Counted from the stretch's first letter, positions 7,729 through 60,359 are shown. The stretch: 64,000 nucleotides of DNA from Acidimicrobiia bacterium (GCA_040878325.1 JBBDMM010000006.1:128418-192417); one strand, 5' to 3'. The notes: generated from the sequence alone by a model not told the origin. Program-made: numbers and translations.

Positions 7729-7852
7729 GCGATACGCGATACGCGATACGCGATACGAAGGAAGCGGTGAACGCGTGCCGATACCGGTCTGGCGATTCTT
7801 GCGGGAAGCGGGAAGCGGGAAGCGGGAAGCCTGAGGGCGGAAGGCGGAAGGC
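7729..7852. repeat. Modular heptamer element R1
   Basis: (GCGATAC)x4 7729-7756, linker CGCGTGCCGA 7772-7781, TTCTT then (GCGGGAA)x4 7801-7828, (GGCGGAA)x2. Confidence 0.92.
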
Positions 7853-7858
7853 CCCCGC

Positions 7859-8395
7859 CTAGGGACCCTCCACCGACAGGAACGGTTGGTCTATCGCGTC
7901 GAACGCTCCCCGGGGGGCTTCCAGGGCGTAGCGGTAGGAGCCGGATGGCTGATAGCGCTCGCAGGGTTCGGCGACACAGGGCTCCATGCGGAGCAGGTCG
8001 ACCAGGGTTCCATCGGCGGCGAAGAAGGCGATGTCGAGCGGCAGCAGGGTGTCCCGCATCACGAAGGCCGACGCCACGTCGGCGTCCCAGACGAACAGCA
8101 TCCCGTCGAGACCACCGAGGTCGGTCACGCCCATGAGCCCTTGGGCGCGCTGGTCGCGATCGGTGGCCACGGCCACCTCCCACTCGTCCCCCGAAACCAC
8201 GATCGTCTGGTGCTCGAACGCGTCGAGGGGATGGGCGGCTGCGGCCGTCGTCTCGGTGGTGGGCCCGATGACCGGCGGAACGGTGGTCGCCCTGGTCGCC
8301 GGATCCGGCTCGGCGAGAAGGACTCCCACCGCGATCGCCAGCACGACCGCCAGGCCGATACCCAGGGCCAGCGGTCCCCAACGACGGGTGGTCAC
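7859..8395 (-). CDS. DUF192-family protein with N-terminal TM anchor
   Basis: VAVATDRDQRAQGLM, GMLFVW, FVMRDTLLPLDIAF, YALEAP. Confidence 0.85.
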   Translation of the reverse strand: MTTRRWGPLALGIGLAVVLAIAVGVLLAEPDPATRATTVPPVIGPTTETTAAAAHPLDAFEHQTIVVSGDEWEVAVATDRDQRAQGLMGVTDLGGLDGMLFVWDADVASAFVMRDTLLPLDIAFFAADGTLVDLLRMEPCVAEPCERYQPSGSYRYALEAPRGAFDAIDQPFLSVEGP

Positions 8396-9243
8396 CCGTC
8401 GCTCAAGAGTGCTCGGGCGACCTCTTCTGGCATGTGATATGTCTCGTCGTCCGAGGGGAAGTCGCCCTTTTGGACATCCTCGAAGAAGCGGGTGACGGCC
8501 TCGGTGGCGATCGCCCCCAGGTCGACGTACTGGCGCACGAACTTGGGCACCCGTCCATCGCCCAATCCGAGCAGGTCGTGGAAGACCAGTACCTGCCCGT
8601 CAACCTTCGGTCCGGCGCCGATCCCGATGGTCGGGGCACCGACCTCCTTGGTGATCAACTCGGCGAGCACGTCGGGCACCCCCTCGAGCACGATCGAGAA
8701 CACCCCGGCGGCGTCGAGTGCCCGGGCGTCGGCGATGAGCTCGCGCGCCGCCTCGATCTGCTTGCCCTGCACCCGGTAGCCACCCATCGCGTGCACCGAC
8801 TGGGGGGTGAGGCCGAGGTGGCCCATCACCGGGATCTCCGCGTCGAGGACCGCCTCGATCATCGGCAGCCGCTTGCGACCCCCTTCGAGCTTGACGGCCT
8901 CGGCCCCGCCTTGGGCGACCATGCGCCCGGCATTGCGGACCGTCTCCTCCACCGAGACGTGATACGACATCCACGGCATGTCGCCCACCACGAGGGCAGC
9001 CGGCTTGGTGCCCGCAACTGCCCGGGTGTGATGGACCATGTCGTCCATGGTCACGGTCAAGGTGGTCTCGCGGCCCAGCACCACGTTGGCAAGTGAGTCG
9101 CCCACCAGGATGATGTCGGCGCCGGCGGCGTCGGCGATGCGCGCCGAAGGGGCGTCGTAGGCAGTGATCATTCGCAGCTTGGGGCCGCCCTTGGCGGCGC
9201 GCACCTTGGGGGCAGTCTGCTTCTCACGGGTCTCGTCGCGCAT
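8392..9243 (-). CDS. panB: 3-methyl-2-oxobutanoate hydroxymethyltransferase
   Basis: MITAYDA, ILVGDSL, VGDMP, AVKLEGG, MGHLGLTPQS, TIGIGAG..DGQVLV. Confidence 0.97.
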   Translation of the reverse strand: MRDETREKQTAPKVRAAKGGPKLRMITAYDAPSARIADAAGADIILVGDSLANVVLGRETTLTVTMDDMVHHTRAVAGTKPAALVVGDMPWMSYHVSVEETVRNAGRMVAQGGAEAVKLEGGRKRLPMIEAVLDAEIPVMGHLGLTPQSVHAMGGYRVQGKQIEAARELIADARALDAAGVFSIVLEGVPDVLAELITKEVGAPTIGIGAGPKVDGQVLVFHDLLGLGDGRVPKFVRQYVDLGAIATEAVTRFFEDVQKGDFPSDDETYHMPEEVARALLSDG

Positions 9244-9403
9244 TTCTCAGCCTTTCTCCCCACCGGGTTCCGGTTGGGGGAACATCGCGCGTCTTCGGTT
9301 GACCCCCGCCTTCGTGGATCGGCCGCCTACTGGTCGGCCGTACCTGCGGGTACCCCTCCATCATAGGAAACCCCGGGCCAAGGCCGGCACTAGCGTCGGT
9401 CCC

Positions 9404-9880
9404 ATGGCACGCAAGGACATCTCGATGACCCCCGGGGAGGTGAGCGCCTTCCTCGAAGCCGGCCACACCATCGTGGTCGCCTCACTGGGGCGGGGGGGAA
9501 TGCCCCATCTGGCACCCATGTGGTACGTGATGGAGGACGGCAAGGTGGTCTTTCGCTCGTTCACCAAGTCGCAGAAGATCGTGAACCTCCAGCGGGACGC
9601 TCGAGTCACCCTCCTCCTCGAGACCGGTGAGAGGTACGCCGAACTCCAGGGGGTGATGATCAAGGGGCGCGCCGTGCTGGTGGACGACCCCGCCTACACC
9701 CTGGGGATCTACGGGCGCCTCGCCGCCAAGTACGCCATGGTCGGCGACAGCCCGGTCGTGCTCGAGGGTGAGGCCCTGGAGGCGGCGTTCGGGCGGTTTG
9801 CCCCCAAGAACACCTCGGTGATCGTCGAGCCCTCGCGGGTGGTCACCTGGGACCACCCCAAGCTGGGCGGGGGGTATTAG
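9404..9880 (+). CDS. Pyridoxamine 5'-phosphate oxidase-like (FMN/F420 split-barrel) protein
   Basis: VASLGRGGMPHLAPMWY, SQKIVNLQRDARVTLL, VTWDHPKL. Confidence 0.82.
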   Translation: MARKDISMTPGEVSAFLEAGHTIVVASLGRGGMPHLAPMWYVMEDGKVVFRSFTKSQKIVNLQRDARVTLLLETGERYAELQGVMIKGRAVLVDDPAYTLGIYGRLAAKYAMVGDSPVVLEGEALEAAFGRFAPKNTSVIVEPSRVVTWDHPKLGGGY

Positions 9881-10024
9881 GCGGCCGGCTTTGCCGGCCG
9901 CCGCAATTCGCAATTCGCTATTCGCAATTCGAAGGACGGGCCGGGTCGCTTCCTCCCGGCCCATTGAGCGGGCTCTGGAGGCGCTCGGTCGGGGGTTTCG
10001 CCCTTCGCTCTTCGCCTTTCGCTC
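9881..10024. repeat. Hairpin plus heptamer arrays R2
   Basis: GCGGCCGGC-TTT-GCCGGCCGC, then about four GCAATTC-type units (9901-9931) and four TTCGCYY-type units (about 9997-10024). Confidence 0.8.
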
Positions 10025-10079
10025 GACGGTTCTGGCTACTAGAAGCCAAGAACTCGCGAAAAGTTATAACCCGCTTGGT

Positions 10080-10112
10080 TTGACAATCGTTATATCGGAC
10101 CGATATAACGAT
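10080..10112 (+). promoter_or_regulatory. Sigma70-type promoter with overlapping perfect palindromic operator (probable PadR autoregulation site)
   Basis: TTGACA 10080-10085, TATAAC 10104-10109; ATCGTTATATCGG-A-CCGATATAACGAT 10086-10112. Confidence 0.8.
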
Positions 10113-10119
10113 CTACACG

Positions 10120-10650
10120 ATGTTGGGCATGGCGATTCTGGGGCTGCTCCGCGAGGGGCCGATGCACGGGTACGAGCTGCGACAGCGGCTGGTCGACCTG
10201 GGCTTCTGGCGTATCTCGTTCGGCTCGGTATATCCGGCGTTGCGCCGGTTGAACAAGTCCGAGTGGGTCGAGATCACCCCAGGGGCGGGACGGCGGAAGG
10301 AATACCGCATCACCGCCGAAGGCAAGGAGCACTTCCAGCAGCTTCTCGAAGACGAGGGCTCCGAGGTGGAGAACACCACCGCATTTCGGGTACGCCTCGC
10401 CTTCTTCCGGTACATGGAGCCGAATACACGAATCGGCTTCCTCGAGCGGCGCAAGGCCGTTCTGCGGGAGCGGATCGCCACGGCTCGAAACTCGTTGCGC
10501 AAGACGGCCGATCGGGTCGACCGGTACACCCACTCCTTGATGGAGCACGGGGTGCGCGCGGCCGAAGCCGACGTGGCCTGGCTCGACGAACTCATCGCGT
10601 CCGAACGAGACGCACCCGATGAGGCGACCGACGCCTCGATGGATTCCTGA
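10120..10650 (+). CDS. PadR-family transcriptional regulator (Rv0047c-like position upstream of ino1)
   Basis: LAILGLL-like N-terminus, PMHGYEL, SFGSVYPALRRL, RRKEYRITAEG. Confidence 0.92.
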   Translation: MLGMAILGLLREGPMHGYELRQRLVDLGFWRISFGSVYPALRRLNKSEWVEITPGAGRRKEYRITAEGKEHFQQLLEDEGSEVENTTAFRVRLAFFRYMEPNTRIGFLERRKAVLRERIATARNSLRKTADRVDRYTHSLMEHGVRAAEADVAWLDELIASERDAPDEATDASMDS

Positions 10651-10666
10651 GGATAGGGAGGACTAG

Positions 10667-11773: not shown

Positions 11774-11793
11774 GAGCCTCGCTGGGCTCGGCT

Positions 11794-11867
11794 GCGATTG
11801 GCGATTGGCAAGAACGTGGAGAGAAAGTCCGGGGGTCTTCTCTTCTCTTGCGGAGGTGGGAGGCGGG
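11794..11867. repeat. Degenerate modular heptamer element R3
   Basis: (GCGATTG)x2 11794-11807 and TCTTGCGGAGGTGGGAGGCGGG 11846-11867. Confidence 0.65.
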
Positions 11868-11878
11868 TAGCCCTCCTC

Positions 11879-12640
11879 TTACAGCCTCGCTTTGAGCCAC
11901 GCGATGTCCGCGGCTTGCCCCTCGGCATCCCCGGGGGTTTCGACGACGGTGGGAACCCCGGCGGAGCGGACCACGCCGACCAGCACGTCCTCCGGGATCA
12001 TCCCCTCTCCGAGATTGGCGTGGCGGTCGCGGCTTGAGCCGTGGGGGTCGCGCGAATCGTTGCAGTGGATCAAGTCGAGCCGGCCGGTGAGTCCTCGCAC
12101 TCGATCGGGCAAGCCATCCAGTTCCGCCCCCGACGCCCAGGCGTGGCAGGTGTCGATCACCACCCCCACCGGGAAGGCGCCGATCGCCTCCCACAATCGT
12201 CCGAATCCGTCGATCTCCCGCAGGACCGCATTGCCCCCGCCGGCAGTGTTCTCCAGAAGCACCGGAACCGTCACCTCGACCGAGTCGAGCGCCTTGCGCC
12301 AACGGTCGTACCCGACAGCGACATCCTCATCGTCGCCGACATGGCCGCCATGAACGATGACCCCGGCGGCGCCAATAGCCCCCGCCGCGGCCAGGGTGTC
12401 GGCGAGGATCTTGCGACTGGGGATCCGAATCCGGTTGTTGGGTGAGGCGACGTTGATGAGGTAGGGGGCGTGCACGTAGATCGGCAGGCTCGACGCGGCC
12501 AGTGCCGCCGCGTCCGGACGGGGAGGAGGCGCCTTCCACGACTGCGGGTTCGACAGGAAGATCTGGACGAGGTCCGCGCCACGAGCGGCGGCCTCGGGCA
12601 GCGGCTCGGCGGTACCGACGTGGGCCCCGATCGGGATCAC
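11879..12640 (-). CDS. nfo: Endonuclease IV (AP endonuclease family 2)
   Basis: [54 protein letters not shown]. Confidence 0.92.
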
Positions 12641-13257: not shown

Positions 13258-13294
13258 GGGCTGGAGGGTAGATCAGCAAGCCCCACTCTCGGTA

Positions 13295-13372
13295 CGCAAT
13301 GCGCAATGCGCGACCTGCGGTCCGCGTCCGTGGAGGGTTTGACGCGTCGCGCATTGCACATCGCGCATTGCG
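13295..13372. repeat. Inverted pair of GCAATGC-type arrays R4
   Basis: CGCAATGCGCAATGCGCGAC (13295-13314) ... GTCGCGCATTGCACATCGCGCATTGCG (13346-13372). Confidence 0.85.
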
Positions 13373-14185: not shown

Positions 14186-14204
14186 GACCCCGGGGCGATT
14201 CGCT

Positions 14205-16147: not shown

Positions 16148-16213
16148 TGATCCTCCAAATGGCTGTGACGCGGCACAGTAGCCAGTCCTCGGATTCAACC
16201 GGGGGCTACGGCC

Positions 16214-17323
16214 TCAGCCCACCACTCGCTCGTAGAGCGAGCGCAGCCGCCCCGCCCATCGATCCGCGCCGAACTCTTCGTCATACCGCTCGCGACCGTG
16301 CTTGCCCATCGCAGCCCTCTCCTCGGGGTCGCCGGCGAGGCTCGCCACCGCGGCGGCGAGAGCGGCCGCATCACCCGGAGCCACCAGGATCCCGGCGCCC
16401 GGAGTCACGATCTCGGACACCCCACCGACATCCGAGGCGATCACGGGGCGAGACGCGGCGATGGCGTGGATGAGCGCGGTCGGCAGTGCGTCCGCCAGCG
16501 ATGGGTGTACCACCAGGTCGGCCGCCGCCAGGATCCGATCGACGTCCTCCCGAAAGCCGCCGAAAACCACCCGACCCGGCGGGAGGTCCGCCGCCAGGGA
16601 CCGCAATCGGCCTTCCAGCGGTCCGTCGCCCACCAGGAGGAAGACCACGCCGGCAGAGGAGCGCGCCGCCTCCAGTAGTACCTCGTGACCCTTCCCCGGA
16701 CGCATGACCGCGATCGTGGCGGCAACCAAGGCATCGGGAACGATCCCCAGCTCGGCCCGCACCGCGGCGCGAGTGCCTTCGAGGGGCTCACCGGGGTCGG
16801 GCACGCCGTTGCGGATCGTCACCACCCGGCCGGGCTCCTCGGCGAACTCCTCCAGGTACCAACCCCGCATCGCCTCCGAGACGGCCACCGTGGCCGCCGC
16901 GGTCCGCCTCCGGGACCTCGCCGCGAGGTTCCGCTTGAAGAGGGCGATACCCGAGACATCTCGTTCGATCACATGGAGGGTGGAAACGTGGGGGATCCCG
17001 CTCCGCGAGGCCACCCTGCCGGCGATGAAGTCGGCGTGCTTGAGGTGGGAGTGGAGCACGTCAGGCCGTCCGATCTCGACTAGCCGACGCAGCCGACGGG
17101 GACCGCGCGGATCCCACCAGGCGCGGAGATCGAGCGAAGCCACCCGGGCTCCGGCGGCGCGCAGCTGCTCCGGATAGCGGAGGCCGTCGGTGGGGAGCAT
17201 GCTCACCACCGTCAGGTCGATGCCGGCGCCGGCCGCCACCGAGGCCAGGTCGACGAGAACATGCTCGGCCCCACCGGGGCCGAGGTCGTGAATCAGATGA
17301 AAGACGCGGATGGACCCCGGCAT
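16214..17323 (-). CDS. Glycosyltransferase family 4
   Basis: GPGGAEH, DVLHSH, TIRNGV, KGHEVLL, FGGFREDV...PSLADALP, VIASDVGG. Confidence 0.9.
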   Translation of the reverse strand: MPGSIRVFHLIHDLGPGGAEHVLVDLASVAAGAGIDLTVVSMLPTDGLRYPEQLRAAGARVASLDLRAWWDPRGPRRLRRLVEIGRPDVLHSHLKHADFIAGRVASRSGIPHVSTLHVIERDVSGIALFKRNLAARSRRRTAAATVAVSEAMRGWYLEEFAEEPGRVVTIRNGVPDPGEPLEGTRAAVRAELGIVPDALVAATIAVMRPGKGHEVLLEAARSSAGVVFLLVGDGPLEGRLRSLAADLPPGRVVFGGFREDVDRILAAADLVVHPSLADALPTALIHAIAASRPVIASDVGGVSEIVTPGAGILVAPGDAAALAAAVASLAGDPEERAAMGKHGRERYDEEFGADRWAGRLRSLYERVVG

Positions 17324-17353
17324 GAGGACTCATCGGCGCCTCGGAGCAAGGGC

Positions 17354-17535
17354 ATGAGGGATGAGGGATGCGCAATACGGAATACGCAATGCGCGATGCG
17401 CAATGCGCAATGCGCGACCGGTCGAGCGCGTGCCGAGGGTCAGGACGGGCTCTTGCGGATGGCGGAAGGCGGACGGCCTTCTTGCTGGAGACTGGAGACT
17501 GGAGACTGGAGACTGGGGACTGGAGACTGGAGACT
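17354..17535. repeat. Complete modular heptamer element R5
   Basis: (ATGAGGG)x2, GCAATRC/GCGATGC array 17371-17416, CGCGTGCCGA 17427-17436, TCTTGCGGATGGCGGAAGGCGGA, CTTCTTG, (CTGGAGA)x7 17485-17533 with one variant unit. Confidence 0.95.
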
Positions 17536-17569
17536 CCTATCCACCCAATTCCCCTAGCCTCGCGCGGCT

Positions 17570-19009
17570 ATGCGAATCCTCGTCACGGGTGCCACTGGTT
17601 ACATCGGGGGTCGCCTCGTGCCGCGGCTGCTCGACGCGGGGCATCAGGTCCGTTGCCTGGCTCGCAGTCCCGCCAAGCTCGCCCAGCACCCGTGGAGGCG
17701 CGAGGTGGAGGTCGTCGCCGGCGACGTGCTGTACGCCCCCTCCCTGAAGGAGGCGGCCTCCGGCTGCGACATGGCCTATTACCTGGTCCACTCTGTGGCC
17801 GCCGGCAAGGGCTTCGCCGACCTCGACCGATCCGGCGCCGACAACTTCCGCCTCGCCGCCGAGGACTCCGGGCTGCGGAGGATCGTGTACCTCGGAGCGC
17901 AGGGGGCGGCCGACGGCATCCATTCCCGCGTCGCCGCGGTCCGGCACGAGGTGGGTGCAATCCTTGCTTCGGGGGTGGTGCCGGTGACCGAGATCCGGGT
18001 GGGACCGGTGATCGGCTCGGGATCGCGGTCGTTCGAGATGGTGCGGTCCCTCACCGAGGTCAGCCCGATCCTCCTCGCCCCGCGTTGGGTGCGAAACGAG
18101 TGCCAGCCGGTCGGGGTGAGAGACGTCATCGAAGCCCTGACGTCTGCCGCCACCGACGCTTCGGCCCACGGCCGCGTCGTCGAGCTCGGCGGGCCCGAAG
18201 TGCTCACCTTCTTGCAGATGATGAAGATCTACGCCGACGAGGCCGGCCTGCGGAAGCGGCGGGCGATACCGGTGCCGATGACCGCCGCCCGACTGTCGTC
18301 GCTGTGGGCGGGGCTGGTGACCCCACTGCCGGCGCGGGTGGCGCGTCCCTTGATCGAGGACCTGCGATCGGGTCTCGTGCCCGAGTCGCCCGAACCGCTG
18401 GTGGACGACCCCACCCCATATCGTGTCGCCCTTCGCCGGGCCCTGTCGCGGCTTCCGGGTGGGGTGATCACCCGCTGGTCCGATGCCGAATCCCACCCGC
18501 CGGCGCCGGAACCGAACCGCTCCTGGCGGGGCGAGATCGTCTACATGGACCGCCAGGTGGTGCCCACCGACGCCGAGACCGCTCACCTCTTCTGGGCCTT
18601 CAGCCGCATCGGCGGCAGTGTCGGGTACTACGGGCTCGATTGGGCATGGCGGATACGCGGCCTTCTCGATCGAGCAGTGGGCGGTCCCGGACTGCGGCGC
18701 GGCCGACGGCATCCCAATGAGTTGCGGGTGGGTGAGGTCGTCGACTGCTGGCGGGTCGAAGAGGTGGAACCGGGAAGGCGCCTCCGCTTGCGCGGCGAAC
18801 TCAAGATCCCTGGTGAGGCGTGGCTCGAGTGGGAGACCCGTGACACCGAGTTCGGGGCCGACCTGATCCAGACCGCGTGGTTTCGCCCGCGGCGGTGGCG
18901 AGGCCGGGTGTATTGGTACGGAATGCTCGCCGCCCATCGCATCGTCTTCCCGCGGATGGCGCGACGCATCGCCGCGGCCGCTGAAGAACGCGGGTACTCG
19001 ACGCGGTGA
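17570..19009 (+). CDS. NAD(P)-binding (atypical SDR) oxidoreductase with C-terminal DUF2867 (YbjT-like)
   Basis: ILVTGATGYIGG, YYLVHS, QPVGVRDV, WRIRGLLDR.VGGPGLRRGR, WRVEEVEPG. Confidence 0.88.
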   Translation: MRILVTGATGYIGGRLVPRLLDAGHQVRCLARSPAKLAQHPWRREVEVVAGDVLYAPSLKEAASGCDMAYYLVHSVAAGKGFADLDRSGADNFRLAAEDSGLRRIVYLGAQGAADGIHSRVAAVRHEVGAILASGVVPVTEIRVGPVIGSGSRSFEMVRSLTEVSPILLAPRWVRNECQPVGVRDVIEALTSAATDASAHGRVVELGGPEVLTFLQMMKIYADEAGLRKRRAIPVPMTAARLSSLWAGLVTPLPARVARPLIEDLRSGLVPESPEPLVDDPTPYRVALRRALSRLPGGVITRWSDAESHPPAPEPNRSWRGEIVYMDRQVVPTDAETAHLFWAFSRIGGSVGYYGLDWAWRIRGLLDRAVGGPGLRRGRRHPNELRVGEVVDCWRVEEVEPGRRLRLRGELKIPGEAWLEWETRDTEFGADLIQTAWFRPRRWRGRVYWYGMLAAHRIVFPRMARRIAAAAEERGYSTR

Positions 19010-21307: not shown

Positions 21308-21312
21308 CCCGG

Positions 21313-21466
21313 CCTCCAGCCTCCAGCAAGAAGGCCTTCCGCCTTCCGCAAGACTCCGGTCCAACCCTGCAAACGCGCTCGACCGGCCGCGCATCGCGCA
21401 TCGCGCATCGCGTTCCTCCGTGTCGCGTATTGCGAATCGCGAATCGCGTGCCGAGCGAAGCGAGGC
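21313..21466. repeat. Modular heptamer element R6 (inverted relative to R5)
   Basis: (CCTCCAG)x2, AAGAAGG, (CCTTCCG)x2 CAAG 21335-21352, AACGCGCTCGACCGG, (GCGCATC)x3, GCGAATC units, CGCGTGCCGAGCGAAGCGAGGC. Confidence 0.92.
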
Positions 21467-24039: not shown

Positions 24040-24042
24040 GCC

Positions 24043-24146
24043 CGCTCCGGCTACGGCTCCAGCCCCAGCCAGAGAAGAGCCAAGAGTCAAGAATCAAGAA
24101 TCAAGAATTGGGATTGGTGTTGTCTTGATTCTTGGCTCTTGATTCT
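24043..24146. repeat. Hexamer array plus inverted ATCAAGA/TCTTGAT arrays R7, overlapping the cca stop
   Basis: CGGCTACGGCTCCAGCCCCAGCC, GCCAAGAGTCAAGAATCAAGAATCAAGA, then TCTTGATTCTTGGCTCTTGATTCT. Confidence 0.88.
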
Positions 24147-25551: not shown

Positions 25552-25659
25552 TCCAGTCTCCAGTCGCCAATCCCCAGTCTCCAGCGAGAACAGATCAAGA
25601 ATTCTTGCGGGAGGCGGGAGGCTTCTCCTACTGGAGACTGGCGACTGGAGACTGGAGAC
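25552..25659. repeat. Modular element R8 bracketed by inverted CCAGTCT/CTGGAGA arrays
   Basis: CCAGTCTCCAGTCGCCAATCCCCAGTCTCCAG ... TTCTTGCGGGAGGCGGGAGGC ... CTGGAGACTGGCGACTGGAGACTGGAGACT. Confidence 0.92.
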
Positions 25660-26753
25660 TCATTTCGTCCCGACCAGGCCCAGTTGCTGTGCTCGCAGCT
25701 TGAGGTCCGCCGGGTTGGTGGCGTTGCGCATTGCTTCGTCGAAGGCGATCTTGCCGCTGCCTGCCAGGCGCAGGATGGCCTGATCGAAGGTCTCCATGCC
25801 GTAGTACGACCCCTCGGCGATGACGTCGGGGATCTCATGGGTCAGCGTCTCATCGGCGATCCGTTCGGCGACCCGGTCGGTGTTGACGAGCACCTCGACC
25901 GCCGGCACCCGACCCTTGCCGCTCACCGCGGGGATGAGCCGCTGGCTGAGGATCGCCTTCAGCGTGCCGGAGAGCAGCACTCGGATCTGACGCTGATGCT
26001 CGGTGGGGAAGAAGTCGATGATGCGGTTGATGGTCTCAGTCGCATCGAGGGTGTGGAGCGAGGACAACACCAGGTGGCCGGTCTCGGACGCCTTGAGGGC
26101 GGCATCGACGGTCTCCACGTCGCGCATCTCGCCGATGAGGATGACGTCGGGGTCCTGGCGGAGCATCCGGCGCATCGCTTCGCCGAAACTGCCGGTGTCC
26201 ACGCCCACCTCGCGCTGGCTCACCATGGCCACCTTGTCGCGGTGGATGAATTCCACCGGGTCCTCCACCGTGATGATGTTGACCCGGCGGTTCGAGTTGA
26301 TCCAATCGACCAGCGCCGCCAGGGTCGTCGACTTCCCCGAGCCGGTGGGCCCGGTCACGAGGATCAGTCCCCGGCGCTCGGCAGCGAGCCGGGAGAGCAC
26401 CGGAGGAAGCCCCAGCGAGGCGAAGTCGCCAGTGGGTGGAAGCAGAGCGCGCAGGGCGATGGTGTTGTGGCCCCGCTGCTGAAAGGCGTTCACCCGGAAT
26501 CGGGAGCCGTCGCGGAGGCCATACGCGAAGTCGGCCTCCCGATGCTCCTTGAACTCGACCCGCAGGCGGTCCGGGATCAGGGCTTCGAGGTAGGCGTCGA
26601 CATCGGCCACCGTGAGGTTCGGCTGCGGAAGGGGGCGCAGGTCGCCGTCCACCCGGATCGTCGGGGGGATCCCCGGCTTCAGGTGGAGGTCAGATGCTCC
26701 GGCCGTGCGCGTGTCGGCGAGTAGTTCATCGATCGAGGGCAGGTTCGAGGTCA
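25660..26753 (-). CDS. pilT: Type IV pilus retraction ATPase PilT/PilU family
   Basis: ASDLHLK upstream of the ORF-track start, GPTGSGKSTT, TVEDPVE, LRQDPDVILIGEMRD, GHLVLSSLH; start codon uncertain. Confidence 0.88.
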
Positions 26754-28606: not shown

Positions 28607-28708
28607 GGCAAGAATCAAGAATCAAGAATCAAGAATCAAGAATCAAGAGTCAAGAGTCAAGAGTCAAGACCGTGGCAGGTTCGAGTCTTGAATCTTGGCT
28701 CTTGATTC
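28607..28708. repeat. RTCAAGA array with inverted partner R9
   Basis: (ATCAAGA)x5 28614-28648, (GTCAAGA)x3 28649-28669, then TCTTGAATCTTGGCTCTTGAT. Confidence 0.95.
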
Positions 28709-29622: not shown

Positions 29623-29697
29623 GCAATTCGCAATTCGCATCTCGATGAACCGGAGCCTTCAACATTCGGCACGCTCGCAGCGCATTGCGCATTGCAC
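29623..29697. repeat. Degenerate heptamer element R10
   Basis: (GCAATTC)x2, TCGGCACGCT (reverse complement of the shared linker) 29666-29675, CGCATTGCGCATTGC. Confidence 0.75.
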
Positions 29698-36147: not shown

Positions 36148-36222
36148 GGTGAAGAAGGTAGCAGGGCCACCGGCTCCGGCTCCAGCTACGGCTCCAGCCA
36201 GAAACGGGGGATCGGACGGCAC

Positions 36223-36238
36223 AGTTTCACGTGAAACA
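36223..36238. promoter_or_regulatory. parS site 1
   Basis: AGTTTCACGTGAAACA, one mismatch to TGTTTCACGTGAAACA. Confidence 0.9.
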
Positions 36239-36256
36239 GAGCAAATTTGAGATCGG

Positions 36257-36272
36257 TGTTCCACGTGAAACA
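36257..36272. promoter_or_regulatory. parS site 2
   Basis: TGTTCCACGTGAAACA, matches the TGTTNCACGTGAAACA consensus. Confidence 0.92.
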
Positions 36273-36383
36273 TCAACAGCTGTGGGGGGTTTGGGCCCGC
36301 GCGTCTGGCCGGAGCTGGAGCCTGGAACCGGGGCTGGGCCGCCGGGGCTCTTCCGGCTGGAGCCGGAGCAGGAGCCGGGGCTG

Positions 36384-49531: not shown

Positions 49532-49588
49532 GCAATGCGCGATGCGCGGTGCGCCAAGCGCTAATCGCAGGCCGAGCGGAGCGAGGCC
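49532..49588. repeat. Short heptamer array plus CCGAGCGGAGCGAGGCC motif R12
   Basis: GCAATGC GCGATGC GCGGTGC 49532-49552; motif at 49572-49588. Confidence 0.65.
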
Positions 49589-49621
49589 CTGCTTGCGACG
49601 CCGGAGCGGCCGACCCTACGC

Positions 49622-49735
49622 TCACTTCACCACACCAGTGGTGACCTGACGGACAGCGAAGTCCGGTTTGAATCCGGCACTGTCCCGCAACCGTGATGCC
49701 CCTCTTTGGGGACGAGTCGGGACGCCTGACGCCAG
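49622..49735 (+). ncRNA. Cobalamin riboswitch
   Basis: AGCGAAGTCCGGTTTGAATCCGGCACTGTCCCGCAACCGTGA...GAGTCGGGACGCCTG matches the B12-element core; upstream of an ABC importer; boundaries approximate. Confidence 0.88.
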
Positions 49736-49818
49736 GTCGGATTTGGACGCCTTCGGAGGAAGGGTGGCCAGCCGTCGGGCTTCCACACCTCCTCCTCGAG
49801 ACTCGAGGAGGTTTTTTC

Positions 49819-52564: not shown

Positions 52565-52570
52565 ACTCGC

Positions 52571-53293: not shown

Positions 53294-53331
53294 CCGCTCG
53301 ATTGTACGACCCGGGCGGCCCGCGGCTCCGG

Positions 53332-53457
53332 TCAGCCGTTGGTGAGCAGCCCGGAGGCGAATCCCATCAGCAGAACGACCCAGAAGATCGCCGCAGTCGC
53401 CAGCACGAAGCCGACGATGATCCGGATGCGCCGCTTGTAGGTGGCTGGGGCAGACAT
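53332..53457 (-). CDS. Small 41-aa single-TM protein (not in ORF track)
   Basis: MSAPATYKRRIRIIVGFVLATAAIFWVVLLMGFASGLLTNG; its ATG directly follows the DUF6529 TGA. Confidence 0.6.
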   Translation of the reverse strand: MSAPATYKRRIRIIVGFVLATAAIFWVVLLMGFASGLLTNG

Positions 53458-54009: not shown

Positions 54010-54163
54010 CGCTCGCCCCCTCCTCGTGAGACGGGAGGAGGCTACCGCGCCGGTACCAGGCCATGCCGAGCGATCGGACCCTGGTTGGCCTGCCTCCGGT
54101 TCGTGCGTCTACGGAGCGGAGCGGAGTCCGCGTCTACGCAAAGACCTGCCATCCTCCGGTGGT

Positions 54164-54613
54164 ATGACACGGGCTCCGGCGAGCAGGGCGGCCCCGGGAG
54201 GAGGGCTGCTCAGCGGGCCGAATCTCCCCTATTCCCTCACGACGCTCGTCGCACTCGGGGTGCTGGTGGCGTTCATCCTCATGGCCGATCCGTTCCGTAG
54301 CGGGGCCGTCTCCACCGGTTTCGGCCCTGGCGACCCGGTGGTGGGCGACACCACTTTCAACAGCCGCTGCAGCGTCTGCCACGGGCCCGGCGGCGAAGGC
54401 ATCATTGGGCTCGGGAAGCCGCTCACCACTTCGGAGTTCGCCGCAGGGCTCACCGACGAGGAACTGCTGGCGTTCCTGATCGAAGGGCGCGCCTCGGACG
54501 ACCCGGACAACACCACCGGGATCGTCATGCCGGGCAGGGCCGGCGTTCCGCCGCTGAGCGACGAGGAGTTGGTCGACGTGATCGCCTATCTCCGGACGCT
54601 GAGCGCCGGTTAG
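54164..54613 (+). CDS. Membrane-anchored monoheme cytochrome c
   Basis: TM helix, CSVCHG, distal GIVMPG Met ligand, LSDEELVDVIAYLRTL. Confidence 0.88.
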   Translation: MTRAPASRAAPGGGLLSGPNLPYSLTTLVALGVLVAFILMADPFRSGAVSTGFGPGDPVVGDTTFNSRCSVCHGPGGEGIIGLGKPLTTSEFAAGLTDEELLAFLIEGRASDDPDNTTGIVMPGRAGVPPLSDEELVDVIAYLRTLSAG

Positions 54614-54622
54614 GGTCGCAGC

Positions 54623-55489
54623 GTGGCTCGGCTGTCCAAAGTAGACCGGCGCAGTCTCCCTGACTCGGCATTTGCGTATGTCGACTCGAAGGGTCGCCGC
54701 AGCCTGCCCATCTACGACGAATCACATCTGAGGAATGCTTTGGCCCGCTTCGAGCAGGTGAAGTTCGAGAGCGAGGCCTCGCGGGATCGTGCCCGCCGAC
54801 GGATCCTCCAGGCGGCCAAGAAGCACGGCATCGTCCCCGTGGGTTTCGTCACCAGCCAACTGGAGACCGAACGAGTTCGAGTGGCGAAGGGTGAGCATCC
54901 GAGTGGGTTTCTCACCCTCATGTTCGCTGACGTCGAGGGATCGACCGCGCTGTTGCATGCGATGGGAGACGCCTACGGACGACTTCTGCAAAGTCTGCGT
55001 CGATTGATCCGGCGGGTGGTGGTGCGCTCTGGAGGGGTCCCGGTCGACCTCCGCGCCGACGAGGCGTTCGTGGTCTTCGAGGACCCGGCAGCCGCGATCA
55101 CGGCGGCCGTGGACCTCCAGCGCACGATCGCCGGCTCCTTCTGGCCCGGCGAGGTAGTGGTCAGGCTGCGGATCGGCCTCCACAGCGGCGAGGTCGCTTG
55201 GACCGACGCGGGATACGTCGGCCTCACGGTGCATACCGCCGCCCGGGTAACGGCTGCCGCCCATGGGGGGCAGATACTGGTCAGTGACGCCTGCCGCCAT
55301 GCCGTCGGTCGACCGCCGGGCATCGGGCTCCGCTCGATCGGGCGGTACCGCTTTGCCGGATTCGTTGACCCGATCCAGGTCTATCAGGCCGACGCGGAGG
55401 GTCTACCCCGCGACTTCCCCGCGCTGCGCGCCGGCAAGCGGGTCAGGGGAGGTGGCCCGGCGGCGGTCAGTTCTTCGCCAGGGCCTTGA
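54623..55489 (+). CDS. DUF6582 domain fused to class III adenylate/guanylate cyclase domain
   Basis: LPDSAFAY...HLRNALARF..V; FADVEGST, RADEAF, LRIGLHSGE, VGLTVHTAARV. Confidence 0.8.
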   Translation: MARLSKVDRRSLPDSAFAYVDSKGRRSLPIYDESHLRNALARFEQVKFESEASRDRARRRILQAAKKHGIVPVGFVTSQLETERVRVAKGEHPSGFLTLMFADVEGSTALLHAMGDAYGRLLQSLRRLIRRVVVRSGGVPVDLRADEAFVVFEDPAAAITAAVDLQRTIAGSFWPGEVVVRLRIGLHSGEVAWTDAGYVGLTVHTAARVTAAAHGGQILVSDACRHAVGRPPGIGLRSIGRYRFAGFVDPIQVYQADAEGLPRDFPALRAGKRVRGGGPAAVSSSPGP

Positions 55490-56255: not shown

Positions 56256-56329
56256 CGGACCACGCTACCGGGAACCGGCGGGGTCACCGTTACCGTCACA
56301 TGGGGCAACACCCACGAAAAGGATCAGAG

Positions 56330-58519
56330 ATGCGCAGGTACCTCGCCCTCGCGGCGGTAATGGTCATGGCGATGACGGCGTGTTCCAGGGCGGAGTCGAC
56401 CAGCCCGATTCGATCGTTGGGAGCCTCTTTCGATCCCCGGTCGATCACCTTCACCGCGATCCTCACGCCGTTCGATGCCTGCGACGCCGTGCTGGCTCAC
56501 TTCAAGGCAGAGGCACTCGAACGGGTGGGTCCCTACGGACTGGATGGTGGCCCTCGCTGGTACTTCTTCGAGGGAGGCGCCAGGGCGCAAGAGGACACTG
56601 CGGGCCCTCCCGGTGACGGCTCGGTGACCACCATGGCTGCCGGGCTTCCCACTGGCGGCGAGGATGGCGGATTTTCGGGGACCAACGTCCAGGTATCCGG
56701 CGTCGACGAGCCCGACATCATCAAGACCGACGGCGAGCGGATCCTCTCGATAGTCGACGGGAAGCTCCGCTACGTCGACGTGACCGGTGACGAACCTGTC
56801 CTGCTCGGCGAACTCCAACTCGAGACGGGCTGGAACCACCGGTTCTTCGTGGATGGTGATCGTGCCTTCGTCTTCTCGCAGGGCGACCTCGATGCGATCC
56901 CGATGTTTGCCGCCGACTCCCGCATCGCCCCGCCCTACGGGATGACCGTGAGCGTGGTTCAGGAGGTCGACCTGTCCGACCCGGACGACATGCAGGTCGT
57001 CCGCACCCTGCGGGTCGATGGCTCTTACCTGAGCGCCCGCTCGATCGACGGGGTGGTGCGGATGGTGGTGTCGTCCTATCCGTCCAATCTCCCCTTCGTG
57101 TATCCCTCCAACGAGTCGGCCGAGGACATCGCCCTCGCCGCCAACCGTCAGATCATCGAGGCGTCGACCCTGGAGACCTGGGTCCCGTCGTACACCCTTT
57201 ACGACGCCGATGGCGACGAGGTCACCTCGGGGCTGGTGGTGGCGTGTGACCGGATGCATCGTCCCGCCGAGTTCGCCGGGTTCGACACCTTGTCGGTGAC
57301 CACTCTCGATCTCAGTGGTTCGCTCGGCGCCGGCAACGGCACCGGGGTCATTGCCCGCGGCGAGACGGTGTACGCGTCGCATACCAGCCTCTACGTGGCC
57401 ACCAATGTGTGGATCCCGGAGAACGTTTCCGACACCCCCGACTTCCAGGAGTTCTCGGAGCGGTACGAGACGGCGGTGCACAAGTTCGACATTGCCGGCG
57501 ACGGGCCCGCCACCTACCGGGCCAGCGGCTCGATCGACGGACACCTGCTCAATCAGTTCTCACTGGACGAGTTCGACGGTGATCTGCGGATCGCGGTCAC
57601 CGAGGGCGCTCCCTGGTCGTTCGAGGAGGACTCGGAGTCCAAGATCGTCGTCCTCACCGAGCGCGATGGTGTCCTGGTGGAGATCGGCTCGGTTGGCAAC
57701 ATGGGCAAGGGTGAAAGGATCTACTCGGTCCGCTTCCTTGGGGAGACGGCGTATGTGGTGACGTTCCGCCAGGTCGACCCGCTCTACGTGGTCGATCTCA
57801 GTGACCCGGAGAGCCCGGTTGTCAGCGGCGAGCTCAAGATCCCCGGCTACTCCTCCTACCTCCACCCCCTGGGCGACGGCTTGCTGCTCGGGGTGGGCCA
57901 GGCGGCCGATAGCCAGGGCCGCACCACTGGAGCGAAGGCCACCCTCTTCGATGTCTCCGATCCTTCCGATCCGCGAGAGCTCTCATCGTGGACCATCGCC
58001 GACGCGTACAGCGACGTCGAGTGGGAGCACCTGGCCTTCCTGTACTGGGCGCCGGCGGACATCGTGGTCCTGCCGATTCAGTCCTGGATGACGCAGTTCA
58101 TGGGGGCGGTGGTCCTCAAGACCGACGATGGACTGCGTGAGTACGGACGTATCACCCATCAGCGCGAGGACCGGCCGGGCGATGGATCGGACTGTGAGGT
58201 TCTCGACTCCGTCAAGGAAGCCGGACTCGTCATTCAGCTCTGCGATGAGGGTGACGATGGCGGGTACGGAGGGTACTACTGCGAGCCCCTGCCGGCGGAT
58301 GAGGCAGCCGCCCTCGCTCGGGATTGGGGCGTCGAGGTCTCCGACGACCAGCTCGACGCCGCCGACAGGGTCGAGGTCTGCTGGCCGAACTACGAGCTCG
58401 GCGATCCGCAGATCATGCGGTCCCTGGTGATCGGCGACACCCTGTGGACCCTGTCCTGGCACGGCCTCCAGGCCAACGCCCTCGACGGCCTCGAGGTGCT
58501 GCACAAGGTGGAGTTCTAA
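56330..58519 (+). CDS. Secreted beta-propeller-domain lipoprotein (Beta_propel family)
   Basis: Lipobox MTACS, TNVQVSGVDEPDIIKTDG, LLNQFSLDE, GERIYSVRF, VTFRQVDPL, GELKIPGYSSYLHP. Confidence 0.88.
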   Translation: MRRYLALAAVMVMAMTACSRAESTSPIRSLGASFDPRSITFTAILTPFDACDAVLAHFKAEALERVGPYGLDGGPRWYFFEGGARAQEDTAGPPGDGSVTTMAAGLPTGGEDGGFSGTNVQVSGVDEPDIIKTDGERILSIVDGKLRYVDVTGDEPVLLGELQLETGWNHRFFVDGDRAFVFSQGDLDAIPMFAADSRIAPPYGMTVSVVQEVDLSDPDDMQVVRTLRVDGSYLSARSIDGVVRMVVSSYPSNLPFVYPSNESAEDIALAANRQIIEASTLETWVPSYTLYDADGDEVTSGLVVACDRMHRPAEFAGFDTLSVTTLDLSGSLGAGNGTGVIARGETVYASHTSLYVATNVWIPENVSDTPDFQEFSERYETAVHKFDIAGDGPATYRASGSIDGHLLNQFSLDEFDGDLRIAVTEGAPWSFEEDSESKIVVLTERDGVLVEIGSVGNMGKGERIYSVRFLGETAYVVTFRQVDPLYVVDLSDPESPVVSGELKIPGYSSYLHPLGDGLLLGVGQAADSQGRTTGAKATLFDVSDPSDPRELSSWTIADAYSDVEWEHLAFLYWAPADIVVLPIQSWMTQFMGAVVLKTDDGLREYGRITHQREDRPGDGSDCEVLDSVKEAGLVIQLCDEGDDGGYGGYYCEPLPADEAAALARDWGVEVSDDQLDAADRVEVCWPNYELGDPQIMRSLVIGDTLWTLSWHGLQANALDGLEVLHKVEF

Positions 58520-58522
58520 GAG

Positions 58523-58702
58523 AGCCTCCAGCCACCAGCCTCCAGCCACCAGTAAGAGAAGAACCAAGAGCCGCGCGGGCCTCCCGCGCGGTTCTTGGTG
58601 TTCGGCCTTCCGCCTTCCGCAAGCACTGTTGAACGCTCTGCGCAAGCAACCACAGACCCCGCCCATCGCATCGCTTATTGCGTATTGCGTATCGCATATT
58701 GC
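58523..58702. repeat. Modular heptamer element R13 with internal hairpin
   Basis: (GCCWCCA)x4, hairpin ACCAAGAGCCGCGCGGG-CCT-CCCGCGCGGTTCTTGGT, (CCTTCCG)x2 CAAG, TATTGCG-type array 58675-58702. Confidence 0.88.
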
Positions 58703-58741
58703 GAAGAGGGCACTCGAGACCCCTAATACCATCCACCGCGC

Positions 58742-59884
58742 GTGTTCGCTCCTATTCGTTCGATGCTGTCGGTGCGCCGGGGGGCGCCGGTGGCGCTCAT
58801 CGTGGGGGCGGCATCGGTGTCGTTCCTCTTTGGCGCAACCCCATTCTTGATTCCCGAGGTGGCCGATCGGCTCGACGTGAGCCTGGGGGTCGCCGGGCTC
58901 ATCTCCTCTGCCCAGGTGCTGGGATTCGCCGGATCGGTGTTCGTTGCCGGTCGGCGGCTCACCCCGTCTCGTGGCGTGCTGGTATGGGCTGCGGTGGCTG
59001 CGGCGGCGTTCGATGTCGCCAGCGGGTTCGTGCCGTCTTTTGGGCTACTCCTGGTCCTGCGACTCGGTGCCGGGGTCGCAGCCGGCCTACTGACGTGGTT
59101 GGCGTGGGCGGATGCGATGCGGTCGTCTCACTCGATGCGCGACATCGCAGCGGTCGGCCCATTGGCTGTGCTGTTCGGCGCACCGCTGCTCGGGTGGGTG
59201 GCGTCGGTGGGCGGCGACCGTGCCCTCTACCTGGTGTTGGCCGCCTCGATGATTCCTCCAATGTTGATTCCGGTCGAGTTCGTGGCTCAGCCGATGAGGG
59301 GTCGGCACTCGATGAGCCCGTCGCGGACGAACCTCGTGCTCATGGGGGCCCTCGGGTTCCTGACGATGGCGGGTTCCGCCCTCTTTGTCTTCCTCGGCGC
59401 GTTCGCCGACATCGAGGTCGGCCTGACCGCGGTCGCGCTGTCCCTGGGGTTCAGCGTCAATGCGTTGGCCGGACTGATCGCCGCCCGCCTGCGACGGCGG
59501 CCCCGATACGCCTGGCCGTGGCTGGTGGTGACGGCGGTTTCGGCGACTTCCATCGTCCTGTTCCCCGGCCCGGTTGTGTTCTACGCCGGGATGTTCAGCT
59601 GGGGTTTCGCGTTCTGGATGGCGGTGCCCCGAGTGCTGGGGCGGGTGGCGGAGTGGTCCCTGGTCCCGGACGAGCGCGTCGGTGACGCCCAGTCGATCAT
59701 GGCGCTGGGTCGCGCCGCCGGCCCGGCGATCGGGGCGGCTCTGGTCGGCTCAGGCGAGTTCGGTGGTCTGGTGGCGTTCGCTGGCGCCGGGCTGCTGAGT
59801 AGCGCGGTCCTGGCGGGATCGGTGGAGGTCTACCGGCGAGACCGGGCCGGTCCGTCGGCCGGTCACAACGTTCCGCATCGCTGA
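58742..59884 (+). CDS. MFS transporter
   Basis: About 12 TM segments, LGVAGLISSAQ, LLVLRLGAG; start may be ATG near 58763. Confidence 0.82.
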   Translation: MFAPIRSMLSVRRGAPVALIVGAASVSFLFGATPFLIPEVADRLDVSLGVAGLISSAQVLGFAGSVFVAGRRLTPSRGVLVWAAVAAAAFDVASGFVPSFGLLLVLRLGAGVAAGLLTWLAWADAMRSSHSMRDIAAVGPLAVLFGAPLLGWVASVGGDRALYLVLAASMIPPMLIPVEFVAQPMRGRHSMSPSRTNLVLMGALGFLTMAGSALFVFLGAFADIEVGLTAVALSLGFSVNALAGLIAARLRRRPRYAWPWLVVTAVSATSIVLFPGPVVFYAGMFSWGFAFWMAVPRVLGRVAEWSLVPDERVGDAQSIMALGRAAGPAIGAALVGSGEFGGLVAFAGAGLLSSAVLAGSVEVYRRDRAGPSAGHNVPHR

Positions 59885-59888
59885 GCCC

Positions 59889-60194
59889 TCAGGCAGCATC
59901 GCCCGTCGGGGGAGGACCCTCGGCGGGAGTGGGTACACGTTTGCGGCCCGCGGCCGCCACCGCTTTGGAGGCGACGCTCTTGATGCCATCCGCGGCCTTC
60001 CCGGCCACGGGGAACTCCTTACGGAGCACCGCGAGCCCGGCCAGTATCACCACAGTGCCCGGCCCCGGCAGCGGGAGAAGGGCCACCCCGAGCAGCACCG
60101 TGGCACCGCCGGACACCGCCACGGTGGCGCGCCGCAGCTGCCGCTTGGAAACAGGTTGGGCTTCCGGGCTGAGGTCACTCTCGTGCACGCTCAT
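59889..60194 (-). CDS. PGPGW-domain small membrane protein
   Basis: GVALLPLPGPGTVVILAGLAVL..EF. Confidence 0.8.
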   Translation of the reverse strand: MSVHESDLSPEAQPVSKRQLRRATVAVSGGATVLLGVALLPLPGPGTVVILAGLAVLRKEFPVAGKAADGIKSVASKAVAAAGRKRVPTPAEGPPPTGDAA

Positions 60195-60228
60195 ATGACC
60201 ACGCAATGCCCGCGAATGTTCCCGGCAA

Positions 60229-60359
60229 TCAGTCGCCAGTCCCCAGTCTCCAGTCTCCAGCAGGACAGGCGATCTGCGATGCGCTCCGGATCGCTTCTCA
60301 GGCGGGAGGCGGGAGGCCATCCCTTCTTCCTGGCTACTGGTGACTGGTGACTGGTGACT
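60229..60359. repeat. Modular element R14 bracketed by inverted CCAGTCT/CTGGTGA arrays, overlapping the upstream stop
   Basis: CAGTCGCCAGTCCCCAGTCTCCAGTCTCCAG ... GGCGGGAGGCGGGAGGCC ... (CTGGTGA)x3. Confidence 0.9.

Follow-up and report, generated by a model that had tools for sequence, protein, structure and literature searches.

Tandem arrays of seven-nucleotide units lying between genes have been on record from cyanobacteria since around 1990; Xanthomonas, Beggiatoaceae and Geobacter were added later, with no function or mechanism established for these arrays. Named classes include the short tandemly repeated repetitive sequences (STRR) of cyanobacteria (Mazel et al. 1990) and the heptanucleotide long simple sequence repeats (LSSR) of Mrazek et al. 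(2007), both as cited in PMC4679880. Rehm et al. (2015) described tandem heptamers of GGGAATC in Xanthomonas and GGGGA(C/T)T in Nostoc at hundreds of mostly intergenic loci; the Xanthomonas repeats form inverted pairs, lie nearer to one neighbouring open reading frame (ORF), in whichever direction it runs, and differ strongly from one close relative to the next (PMC4692102). TAACTGA repeats are known from marine Beggiatoaceae (MacGregor 2015, PMC4679880), and elements of four heptanucleotide copies from Geobacter metallireducens (PMC2700814). Here we describe heptamer arrays at approximately 14 intergenic loci within a 64,000-nucleotide stretch (the window) of the genome of an uncultured Acidimicrobiia bacterium, identified as such through its GyrA relatives. 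The first-pass annotation had taken these loci for a spreading composite element and knew of no description of it; the class had already been described as heptanucleotide simple sequence repeats, including cyanobacterial STRR and Xanthomonas GGGAATC (PMC4692102, PMC4679880), and the loci are best read as local samples of a clade-wide population of the STRR/LSSR type, not as copies of one mobile composite.

The window corresponds to C6:128418-192417 of the genome under study (G000; 2.21 Mb in 18 contigs, 66.6% GC, 98.9% complete), in which arrays were detected with Tandem Repeats Finder (TRF). Period-7 arrays (n=673) were found alongside 175 of period 6 and 89 of period 8; their median copy number was 3.6 (range 2-12), and 85% were intergenic according to gene calls based on GC content at third codon positions (GC3). 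Array counts are lower bounds, because arrays break short-read assemblies. Assembly N runs often lay in or beside heptamer arrays, for instance at C11:19320, C16:132251-132523 and C4:48563-48756, and long poly-C/G runs bordered some assembly gaps. Period-7 arrays were returned at all of the places listed in the window (7728-7852, 9902-10024, 11794-11809, 13295-13311, 17349-17535, 21312-21448, 24081-24108, 25552-25660, 28609-28669, 29623-29695, 49535-49554, 58523-58703 and 60230-60359), so that the loci of the first-pass annotation are real and form part of the genome-wide set of 673. Besides minor families, four unit families cover approximately 85% of the arrays:

Family A: unit GCRATNN
Family B: unit GGCGGAA or GCGGGNA
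Family C: unit CTGGNGN, with ACTGGGG included
Family D: unit CAAGANN

The cores GCRAT, CCGCC, CCAG and CAAGA are constant over approximately 580 arrays, with one or two positions variable even among adjacent units. Four or more runs of at least three G occur in the ACTGGGG subset alone (16 of the 673 arrays); such runs are missing from the main units CTGGAGA, GCGATTG, CAAGAAT and GGCGGAA, which places these outside the G-quadruplex class. A scan of the window against Rfam gave no repeat-family match at the gathering score, an adenosylcobalamin (AdoCbl) riboswitch being the sole hit.

The arrangement of the arrays was governed by their side of the spacer. When A+, B-, C- and D+ were designated left-type and their complements right-type, adjacent arrays were found in the order left|right 151 times and right|left twice. 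The arrays are mirror-symmetric about the spacer centre, a near-absolute rule that applies at either end of a gene: the reading after stops is A+, B-, C-, D+, and before starts it is the complements of these. Inverted pairs showed the same asymmetry, with 33 A+A- against no A-A+, 28 D+D- against none reversed, 13 C-C+ against one, and seven B-B+ against one. By family and strand, the sides were occupied as follows:

A+: 72 on the left side, 16 on the right side
A-: 14 on the left side, 83 on the right side
C-: 43 on the left side, 7 on the right side
C+: 3 on the left side, 52 on the right side
B-: 40 on the left side, 18 on the right side
B+: 17 on the left side, 35 on the right side

Single arrays also followed the side rule (A, p=8e-8; C, p=8e-7), which held in convergent spacers (92:17), at tandem stops (122:36), at tandem starts (69:10) and in divergent spacers (75:23). 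A family-blind skew test in the same genome showed the strand running from gene to spacer centre to be A+C-rich (p=1.5e-16). The direction of the A+C skew was shared by four other sets, namely a relative syntenic with the window region (G001), two genomes of another genus, and 15 other species; samples were smaller there, and three of the four sets reached p<0.05 on the A+C or C/G test (for G001, p=0.19 on C/G and p=0.006 on A+C).

The mirror rule recasts the orientation reported by the first-pass annotation. Six of the seven B modules of the window do follow a stop codon in the sense described, after the genes for DUF192, the nfo-like AP_endonuc_2 protein, RimK, the PilT-like T2SSE ATPase, the beta-propeller protein and the LPG_synthase-methyltransferase, and stop-adjacent copies genome-wide are strongly oriented in that sense (C 57:7, A 87:16). 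Start-adjacent arrays are about as many, however, and mirrored (A 68:14, C 38:3), and divergent spacers keep the rule at 75:23, so that orientation follows the side of the spacer and not transcription; the proposed specificity for 3' untranslated regions is lost, and the pattern of six in seven is one half of the mirror rule. A genome-wide orientation test was accordingly non-random by spacer side but near random when pooled against gene direction. A simple sense/antisense bias relative to flanking genes was rejected on the pooled counts (A 42:44, B 28:36, C 26:42), the signal appearing only by spacer side, and the bias of whole composites relative to gene direction was weak.

Module order was equally regular. 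The order A-B-C proposed for three window loci (R5, R6 and R13) was borne out by the sequence, and among composites genome-wide (arrays within 120 bp) there were 12 A+B+C+, 17 A+B+, 10 A+C+ and six B+C+, with almost no conflicting order; where C and B shared a spacer side, C was outer and B inner in 25 cases and the reverse in none. A grammar of fixed module order and conserved junction motifs is hence real, non-random and genome-wide. ACGCGT occurred beside A arrays in 26 of 211 inner flanks and none of 211 outer flanks, and ACAGAACGCGT was found at the inner ends of A arrays. GCAAGA marked the inner end of 62 of 141 B arrays (outer end, 6), and CAAGA the inner end of 41 C arrays (outer end, 6). 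The sequence TCTTGCGG, noted ahead of module B, occurred eight times in the window against 2.3 expected, and 180 times genome-wide. At the outer end of approximately 80 A arrays stood the small hairpin GGCCGAGCGAAGCGAGGCC, which other half types lacked.

Other strings of the first-pass annotation fared less evenly. The linker CGCGTGCCGA is present exactly at 7772, 17427 and 21445, and as a reverse complement with one mismatch at 29666, but as a 10-mer with at most one mismatch it was found 12 times against 19.7 expected, and at 21445 the match arises where an A array meets the hairpin motif GCCGAGCGAAGCGAGGC, so that this copy is no positional homologue of the others. With no enrichment and one copy of four non-homologous in position, it was rejected as a conserved element; the 10-mer represents only part of (ACA)GAACGCGT, the junction sequence that does recur as a linker core behind A arrays. 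Of the strings common to R5 and R6, CCGGTCGAGCGCGT and GGCCTTCTTGCTGGAG are present but not family-wide (genome counts of 2 and 3). These two loci, 4 kb apart, have a 14-nt spacer string in common, the one such case among the loops compared. A continuous 7-nt phase across modules was inconsistent on R6 when inspected by eye; a gradient of unit decay from one array end, as from directional growth, was ruled out by equally sharp boundaries at both ends; and unit variants at stops and starts differed in minor ways only.

How this anatomy compares with the described systems may now be set out. The arrays display the features of the STRR class: an excess of 7-nt tandems, intergenic dispersal, several families, locus variation between relatives and lineage restriction. 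The STRR/LSSR repeats are likewise of period 7, intergenic and lineage-restricted, with several families per genome, and slippage is proposed as their origin. Moreover, STRR1 (CCCCAGT) is the reverse complement of ACTGGGG, and GGGGACT of Nostoc a rotation of this same family C member. No report was found, for STRR, of a mirror grammar, polar flanks or composites of heterologous half-elements, and the phylum differs, the present genome being GC-rich and compact. The Xanthomonas and Nostoc heptamers resemble the present arrays in their paired inverted arrays able to form stem-loops, their side-of-spacer rule, their lower number between divergent genes, their variation in length and sequence between relatives at the same spacers, and the lack of a link to insertion sequences (PMC4692102). 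They differ in polarity, the G-rich strand reading outwards here whereas in Xanthomonas and Nostoc the G-rich array is nearest the 5' neighbour (PMC4692102). The genome under study, an actinobacterial metagenome-assembled genome, additionally has at least four families in fixed order with junction motifs and an outer hairpin motif; it shows no preference for four copies, and most of its units (CTGGAGA, GCGATTG, CAAGAAT) are unable to form G-quadruplexes. The Beggiatoaceae and Geobacter arrays are also dispersed intergenic heptamers, of 2-6 copies and with a proposed regulatory role (PMC4679880, PMC2700814), but are single-family, whereas here start-side arrays lie upstream of a leaderless -10 box and equal numbers follow stops.

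Repetitive extragenic palindromes (REPs) and bacterial interspersed mosaic elements (BIMEs) are a further point of reference, being intergenic, mostly at 3' ends, and mosaics of opposed units with conserved linkers, hairpins and a content that differs between relatives. REPs often follow GTAG or TAG, and the outer small hairpin of the present arrays often does so too. Unlike REPs, the units here are tandem heptamer arrays and not single 35-nt palindromes, the internal sequences are not conserved between copies, and REP-associated tyrosine transposase (RAYT) was not found in this genome or its array-rich relatives. What comes nearest to a REP palindrome (approximately 20-40 nt) is GGCCGAGCGAAGCGAGGCC, a small conserved hairpin confined to the outer ends of A arrays. 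No published description of the multi-family composite grammar itself was found. What appears to be new is the system of polar half-elements drawn from several families, its fixed order and junction motifs included, together with the near-absolute mirror rule and the occurrence in Actinomycetota.

Within the window, the parts of the loci were assigned as follows:

7728-7757, plus strand: R1, A array of CGCGATA (4.3 copies), a left-type half (TRF and sequence)
7769-7781, plus strand: R1, inner junction GAACGCGT with the linker CGCGTGCCGA
7797-7852, plus strand: R1, TCTTGCGG, then B arrays GCGGGAA (4.3 copies) and GGCGGAA (2-4 copies), abutting the stop of the DUF192 gene (7859-8344, minus strand)
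9902-9931, plus strand: R2, A array of CGCAATT (4.3 copies; TRF)
9997-10024, minus strand: R2, degenerate TTCGCYC array in the right part of the spacer (TRF)
11774-11809, plus strand: R3, outer hairpin motif H (GAGCCTCGCTGGGCTCGGCT), then A array of GCGATTG (2.3 copies), right after a TAG stop
11843-11871, plus strand: R3, TCTCTTGCGG and a degenerate B array, abutting the stop of the nfo-like AP_endonuc_2 gene (11879-12640, minus strand)
13295-13372, no strand: R4, A-type hairpin with A+ at 13295-13311, a loop containing ACGCGT, and A- at 13348-13372
17349-17417, plus strand: R5, AGGGATG units, then A array of CGCAATR (6.4 copies; TRF and sequence)
17418-17484, plus strand: R5, spacer with CCGGTCGAGCGCGTGCCGA, then TCTTGCGG, B array of GCGGAAG (3.3 copies) and junction CCTTCTTG
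17485-17535, plus strand: R5, C array of CTGGAGA (7.3 copies; TRF and sequence)
21312-21353, minus strand: R6, C array (GCCTCCA), CAAGAA, B array (GCCTTCC) and CGCAAGA, beginning 5 nt past the rimK stop
21388-21466, minus strand: R6, A arrays CGCGCAT (3.6 copies) and TCGCGAA (3.7 copies), then outer hairpin motif H' GCCGAGCGAAGCGAGGC (21450-21466)
24041-24108, plus strand: R7, hexamer run (GCTCCG/GCTACG/GCTCCA/GCCCCA), then D array of CAAGAAT (4 copies)
25552-25660, no strand: R8, nested hairpin with C- arm at 25552-25584, CAAGAATTCTTG at 25596-25607, B+ at 25607-25622 and C+ arm at 25630-25660
28609-28706, no strand: R9, D-type hairpin of (CAAGAAT)5(CAAGAGT)3, a 16-nt loop and TCTTGAATCTTGGCTCTTGAT, between converging GNAT and DegV genes
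29623-29695, no strand: R10, A+ (GCAATTC) and A- (GCGCATT), in the divergent spacer between the DegV gene and an extracytoplasmic function (ECF) sigma factor gene
49535-49588, no strand: R11, A+ of ATGCGCG (2.9 copies), an A- remnant and H' GGCCGAGCGGAGCGAGGCC (49570-49588), upstream of the AdoCbl riboswitch
58523-58552, minus strand: R13, C array (GCCTCCA/GCCACCA), beginning 4 nt past the stop of the beta-propeller gene
58564-58598, no strand: R13, GC-rich hairpin with CCAAGA/TCTTGG ends (-36.7 kcal/mol, z-score -6.7)
58601-58703, minus strand: R13, B array of TTCCGCC (2.9 copies), CGCAAG, spacer, and A array of TATTGCG (4 copies)
60230-60359, no strand: R14, C- arm of CAGTCTC (4.4 copies), B+ of AGGCGGG (2.6 copies) and C+ arm of ACTGGTG (3.4 copies)

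At R2, a GC-rich hairpin, GGCGGCCGGCTTTGCCGGCCGCC, immediately follows the stop of a PNPOx-like gene; the C array of R5 is followed by a -10-like TAGCCT (17555-17560) and an ATG at 17570; R7 sits between converging genes for PrkA and a poly(A)-polymerase-family protein (PolyA_pol head domain and HD); and R14 abuts the stop of the LPG_synthase-methyltransferase gene. The RNA-fold z-scores were -6.6 (plus strand) and -7.9 (minus strand) for R8, -6.5 and -4.4 respectively for R14, and -1.0 for the weak hairpin of R10. The riboswitch (49630-49776, plus strand) scored 51.1 bits against a gathering score of 50 and lies between R11 and a gene starting at approximately 49819. Hexamer arms of the GGCTCC/GGAGCC types occur at window 36160-36383 and at C6:221710-221860, the latter with DnaA-box-like TTATCCAC motifs in its centre.

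Comparison with the syntenic relative (88-96% DNA identity by aligned block, typically approximately 93%) revealed rapid turnover. Array positions were mostly kept and their sequences replaced: arrays were present in both genomes at approximately 11 of 16 orthologous sites, with copy-number changes at 7819, 24039 and 28634, and family swaps at 17308, 25537, 36160 and 58523. Individual states were:

Window 25537: C arms in G000, B arms in G001
Window 58523: C-hairpin-B-A in G000, D+D- hairpin in G001
Window 36160: hexamer arms in G000, heptamer arms in G001, around conserved GTTTCACGTGAAAC palindromes
Window 48490: a remnant only in G000, a full A hairpin (A+...A-) in G001

The 14-nt string shared by R5 and R6 was missing from both G001 sites. 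Two GTTTCACGTGAAAC-like central palindromes at 36160-36383, kept in both genomes, are probably the binding sites of a regulator. Genes were present or absent relative to G001 at the array spacers 49533-49610, 54109-54118, 54613-55456 and 63530-64000, with inserts of 1.2 kb and 0.9 kb in G001 only and of 0.84 kb and 0.49 kb in G000 only; genes may be gained and lost especially often at array-bearing spacers. Outside the window, another dispersed repeat, CCTCCCCCGG-N4-CCGGGGGAGGTGCCGAAGCGAAGCGAGGCGGAGGGGGCAGC, was observed in approximately 25 copies (for instance, at C9:21355-21530, C10:33008-33140 and C18:150799-150960). It has a GAAGCGAGG core in common with the hairpin motif of A arrays, and G001 carries a copy at the orthologue of window 60224-60358, where G000 has heptamer arrays.

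Array density was approximately 0.3 per kb in all four genomes of the genus and also in other genera, which had partly different units (CAGACAT, AGGNGTT, CGTTTCC and others) and hairpins of the same kind. In a survey of gyrA loci, at least two arrays were found at 14 of the 16 loci from species with at least 78% GyrA identity (the exceptions being L013 and L015), and none or one at all but one (L051) of 64 more distant loci; the arrays are restricted to one clade. Heptamer arrays were also carried, between structural genes, by two phage contigs (63-65% GC; genes for terminase, portal, protease and major capsid proteins), 12 in IMGVR_UViG_3300044858_004789 and 23 in IMGVR_UViG_3300035659_003156; the CCAGTCA/GTGACTG arrays of the former appear opposite in polarity to the rule in G000. 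In G045, from another family of the same order, a reversed control pattern, GGTCAGNGGTCAGNGGTCA, occurred 115 times, so that heptamers of another family abound in a separate lineage.

Homologous pairs give rise to long imperfect hairpins, and those with C arms folded at z-scores of -4.4 to -7.9. D+D- pairs lay 0-8 nt past stop codons, with one of 28 in a divergent spacer. A stable hairpin right after the stop codon, as in intrinsic terminators, was found for homologous pairs only, and no clear T-run, the counterpart of a U-tract, was seen by eye after the hairpins. Of all convergent spacers 40% held arrays, as did 23% of the tandem and 24% of the divergent ones; among spacers of 80-149 nt the proportions were 53%, 29% and 10%. 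At the other end of genes, TANNNT boxes whose first base lies 12-15 nt ahead of the start codon form a sharp genome-wide peak (approximately 19% of genes; window 17555-17572 is an example), and Shine-Dalgarno-like motifs occur in only approximately 24% of genes, which indicates that leaderless mRNAs are common in this host. Start-side arrays end 3-8 nt upstream of the TANNNT box and are therefore outside the gene's own mRNA.

Our preferred account, which is held with moderate confidence, is that slippage and inter-locus exchange drive the arrays and that hairpin pairs serve as gene-end terminators or insulators. The repeats are built of polar half-elements of two kinds, which from the gene side to the spacer centre read hairpin motif H, (GCRATNN)n and ACAGAACGCGT, or else (CCAGNCN)n, CAAGA, (CCGCCNN)n and (G)CAAGA, sometimes with (CAAGANN)n. 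With the outer end of every half facing the neighbouring gene, a spacer consists of left-type halves, a centre and right-type halves; two halves of the same kind yield a long imperfect hairpin, and an A-half on one side with a C/B-half on the other an A-B-C composite. Arrays would arise, resize and vanish by replication slippage in 7-nt steps, with modules gained or lost, and exchange among loci would maintain a common vocabulary that drifts between genera. The hairpin pairs, 0-8 nt after stops and commonest between converging genes, would probably act as bidirectional terminators, 3'-end protectors or insulators, and the start-side halves just upstream of the -10 box of leaderless promoters would probably be tolerated passengers.

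Several observations weigh against this account. Polarity is also kept in divergent spacers and upstream of leaderless promoters, which are probably not transcribed from the flanking genes, so that selection at the RNA level cannot explain the rule; nor does plain slippage account for unit cores kept over hundreds of loci, and the account explains neither the conserved cores nor why untranscribed divergent spacers obey the mirror rule. Hairpin arms were no more complementary to each other than to arms elsewhere, and their lengths were uncorrelated; this absence of co-variation argues against selection for pairing. The A-B-C composite folds weakly (z-score -2.4), and A|B pairing was nevertheless observed 31 times against approximately 23 expected from random assortment. 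The gene calls came from our own crude GC3-based caller, of which the left|right against right|left count is independent.

The alternatives bear on different parts of this evidence. Rather unlikely, in our estimation, is that the loci are non-autonomous palindromic mobile elements, similar to miniature inverted-repeat transposable elements (MITEs), REPs or BIMEs, copied into spacers by an enzyme encoded elsewhere, with polarity inherited from palindromic founders and heptamer arrays as secondary expansions in their arms. Such descent predicts a fixed polarity per family, and would suit the conserved non-repeat pieces (the hairpin GGCCGAGCGAAGCGAGGCC outside approximately 80 A arrays, ACAGAACGCGT and CAAGA inside), the complete A+...A- hairpin in G001 where G000 keeps a remnant, and the mosaic of modules and linkers, which recalls the BIMEs of E. 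coli; the string shared by R5 and R6, missing at both G001 sites, suggests a recent copying event. The loops and spacers of copies are unrelated, however: 19 of approximately 7,900 pairs matched, mostly via other embedded motifs, against one in a shuffled control. Lengths and module content vary continuously, in place of the common internal sequence and uniform size of MITEs; heterologous halves are as common as homologous ones; and no target-site duplications were seen at the approximately 16 spacers compared between G000 and G001, where flanks had diverged too. The spreading element of the first-pass annotation also lacks the enzymes sought for it. Y1_Tnp (PF01797) had no match in G000 or any array-rich relative, with control genomes positive, and a RAYT/Y1 partner was found in none of 60 relatives bar one array-poor genome; RVT_1, for a reverse transcriptase as array writer, was absent from G000 and array-rich genomes; no systematic search was made for other transposase families. 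Somewhat less improbable, though still unlikely, is that the arrays are binding platforms for a clade-specific multimeric factor that binds DNA or RNA through a core of 4-5 nt every 7 nt and marks both spacer edges, for example an insulator, a nucleoid organiser, or an RNA binder of the cold-shock, S1 or Rho type. Selection for binding would hold the cores constant and leave one or two positions free, as is seen over approximately 580 arrays. It would also accommodate a polarity independent of gene direction and kept in untranscribed divergent spacers, arrays that stay at the same spacers as their sequence turns over, and a vocabulary common within a genus and drifting between genera, as if co-evolving with the factor; such arrays stand between the structural genes of phage contigs too. 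The inward-read strand of the arrays has C in excess of G, in the manner of a Rho utilisation (rut) site. Against this, recognition of four or more unrelated cores would demand several factors, or else one of great tolerance; no protein emerged as a candidate, a spacing of 7 bp does not match the turn of the DNA helix, and copy numbers vary widely (2-12).

It seems very unlikely that the arrays are a functionless by-product of some clade-specific property of replication or repair that makes 7-nt slippage frequent, with arrays piling up where they are least harmful. Their frequency, highest behind gene ends and lowest in short divergent spacers as if selection guarded promoters, the very fast turnover and the absence of co-variation between hairpin arms would all be in keeping with this, and a polymerase footprint favouring heptamers was proposed by Mrazek et al., as cited in PMC4679880. 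Neutral slippage, though, predicts neither the mirror polarity of 151:2, the C-outer/B-inner order of 25:0, the polar junction motifs nor the conserved cores, and arrays persist clade-wide although the genome is small and compact (2.2 Mb). The mismatch-repair nuclease NucS is retained both in and outside the clade, which rules out its loss as the cause of instability. A further proposal, which we consider decidedly improbable, is that a clade-specific trans-acting system, either a protein with a 7-nt register or an activity that copies between loci, maintains a genome-wide and slowly drifting vocabulary of polar half-elements marking both edges of every spacer, whichever way the genes run.

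The genome under study provides an unusually clean and dense case of intergenic heptamers, with four polar-flanked families, a mirror rule of 151:2 and an order of 25:0. The mirror rule excludes simple transcription-linked selection and is unpredicted by plain slippage, and the confinement of the trait to one clade makes phylogenetic profiling for a responsible factor feasible. If a trans-acting system were at work, the arrays would be a gene-boundary code and not slippage debris, and the repeats of STRR type and of Xanthomonas might be accounted for in the same way. If, as in our preferred account, the hairpins are terminators or insulators, they would help to define transcript ends in compact, GC-rich and largely leaderless actinobacterial genomes, where standard terminator predictors fail.

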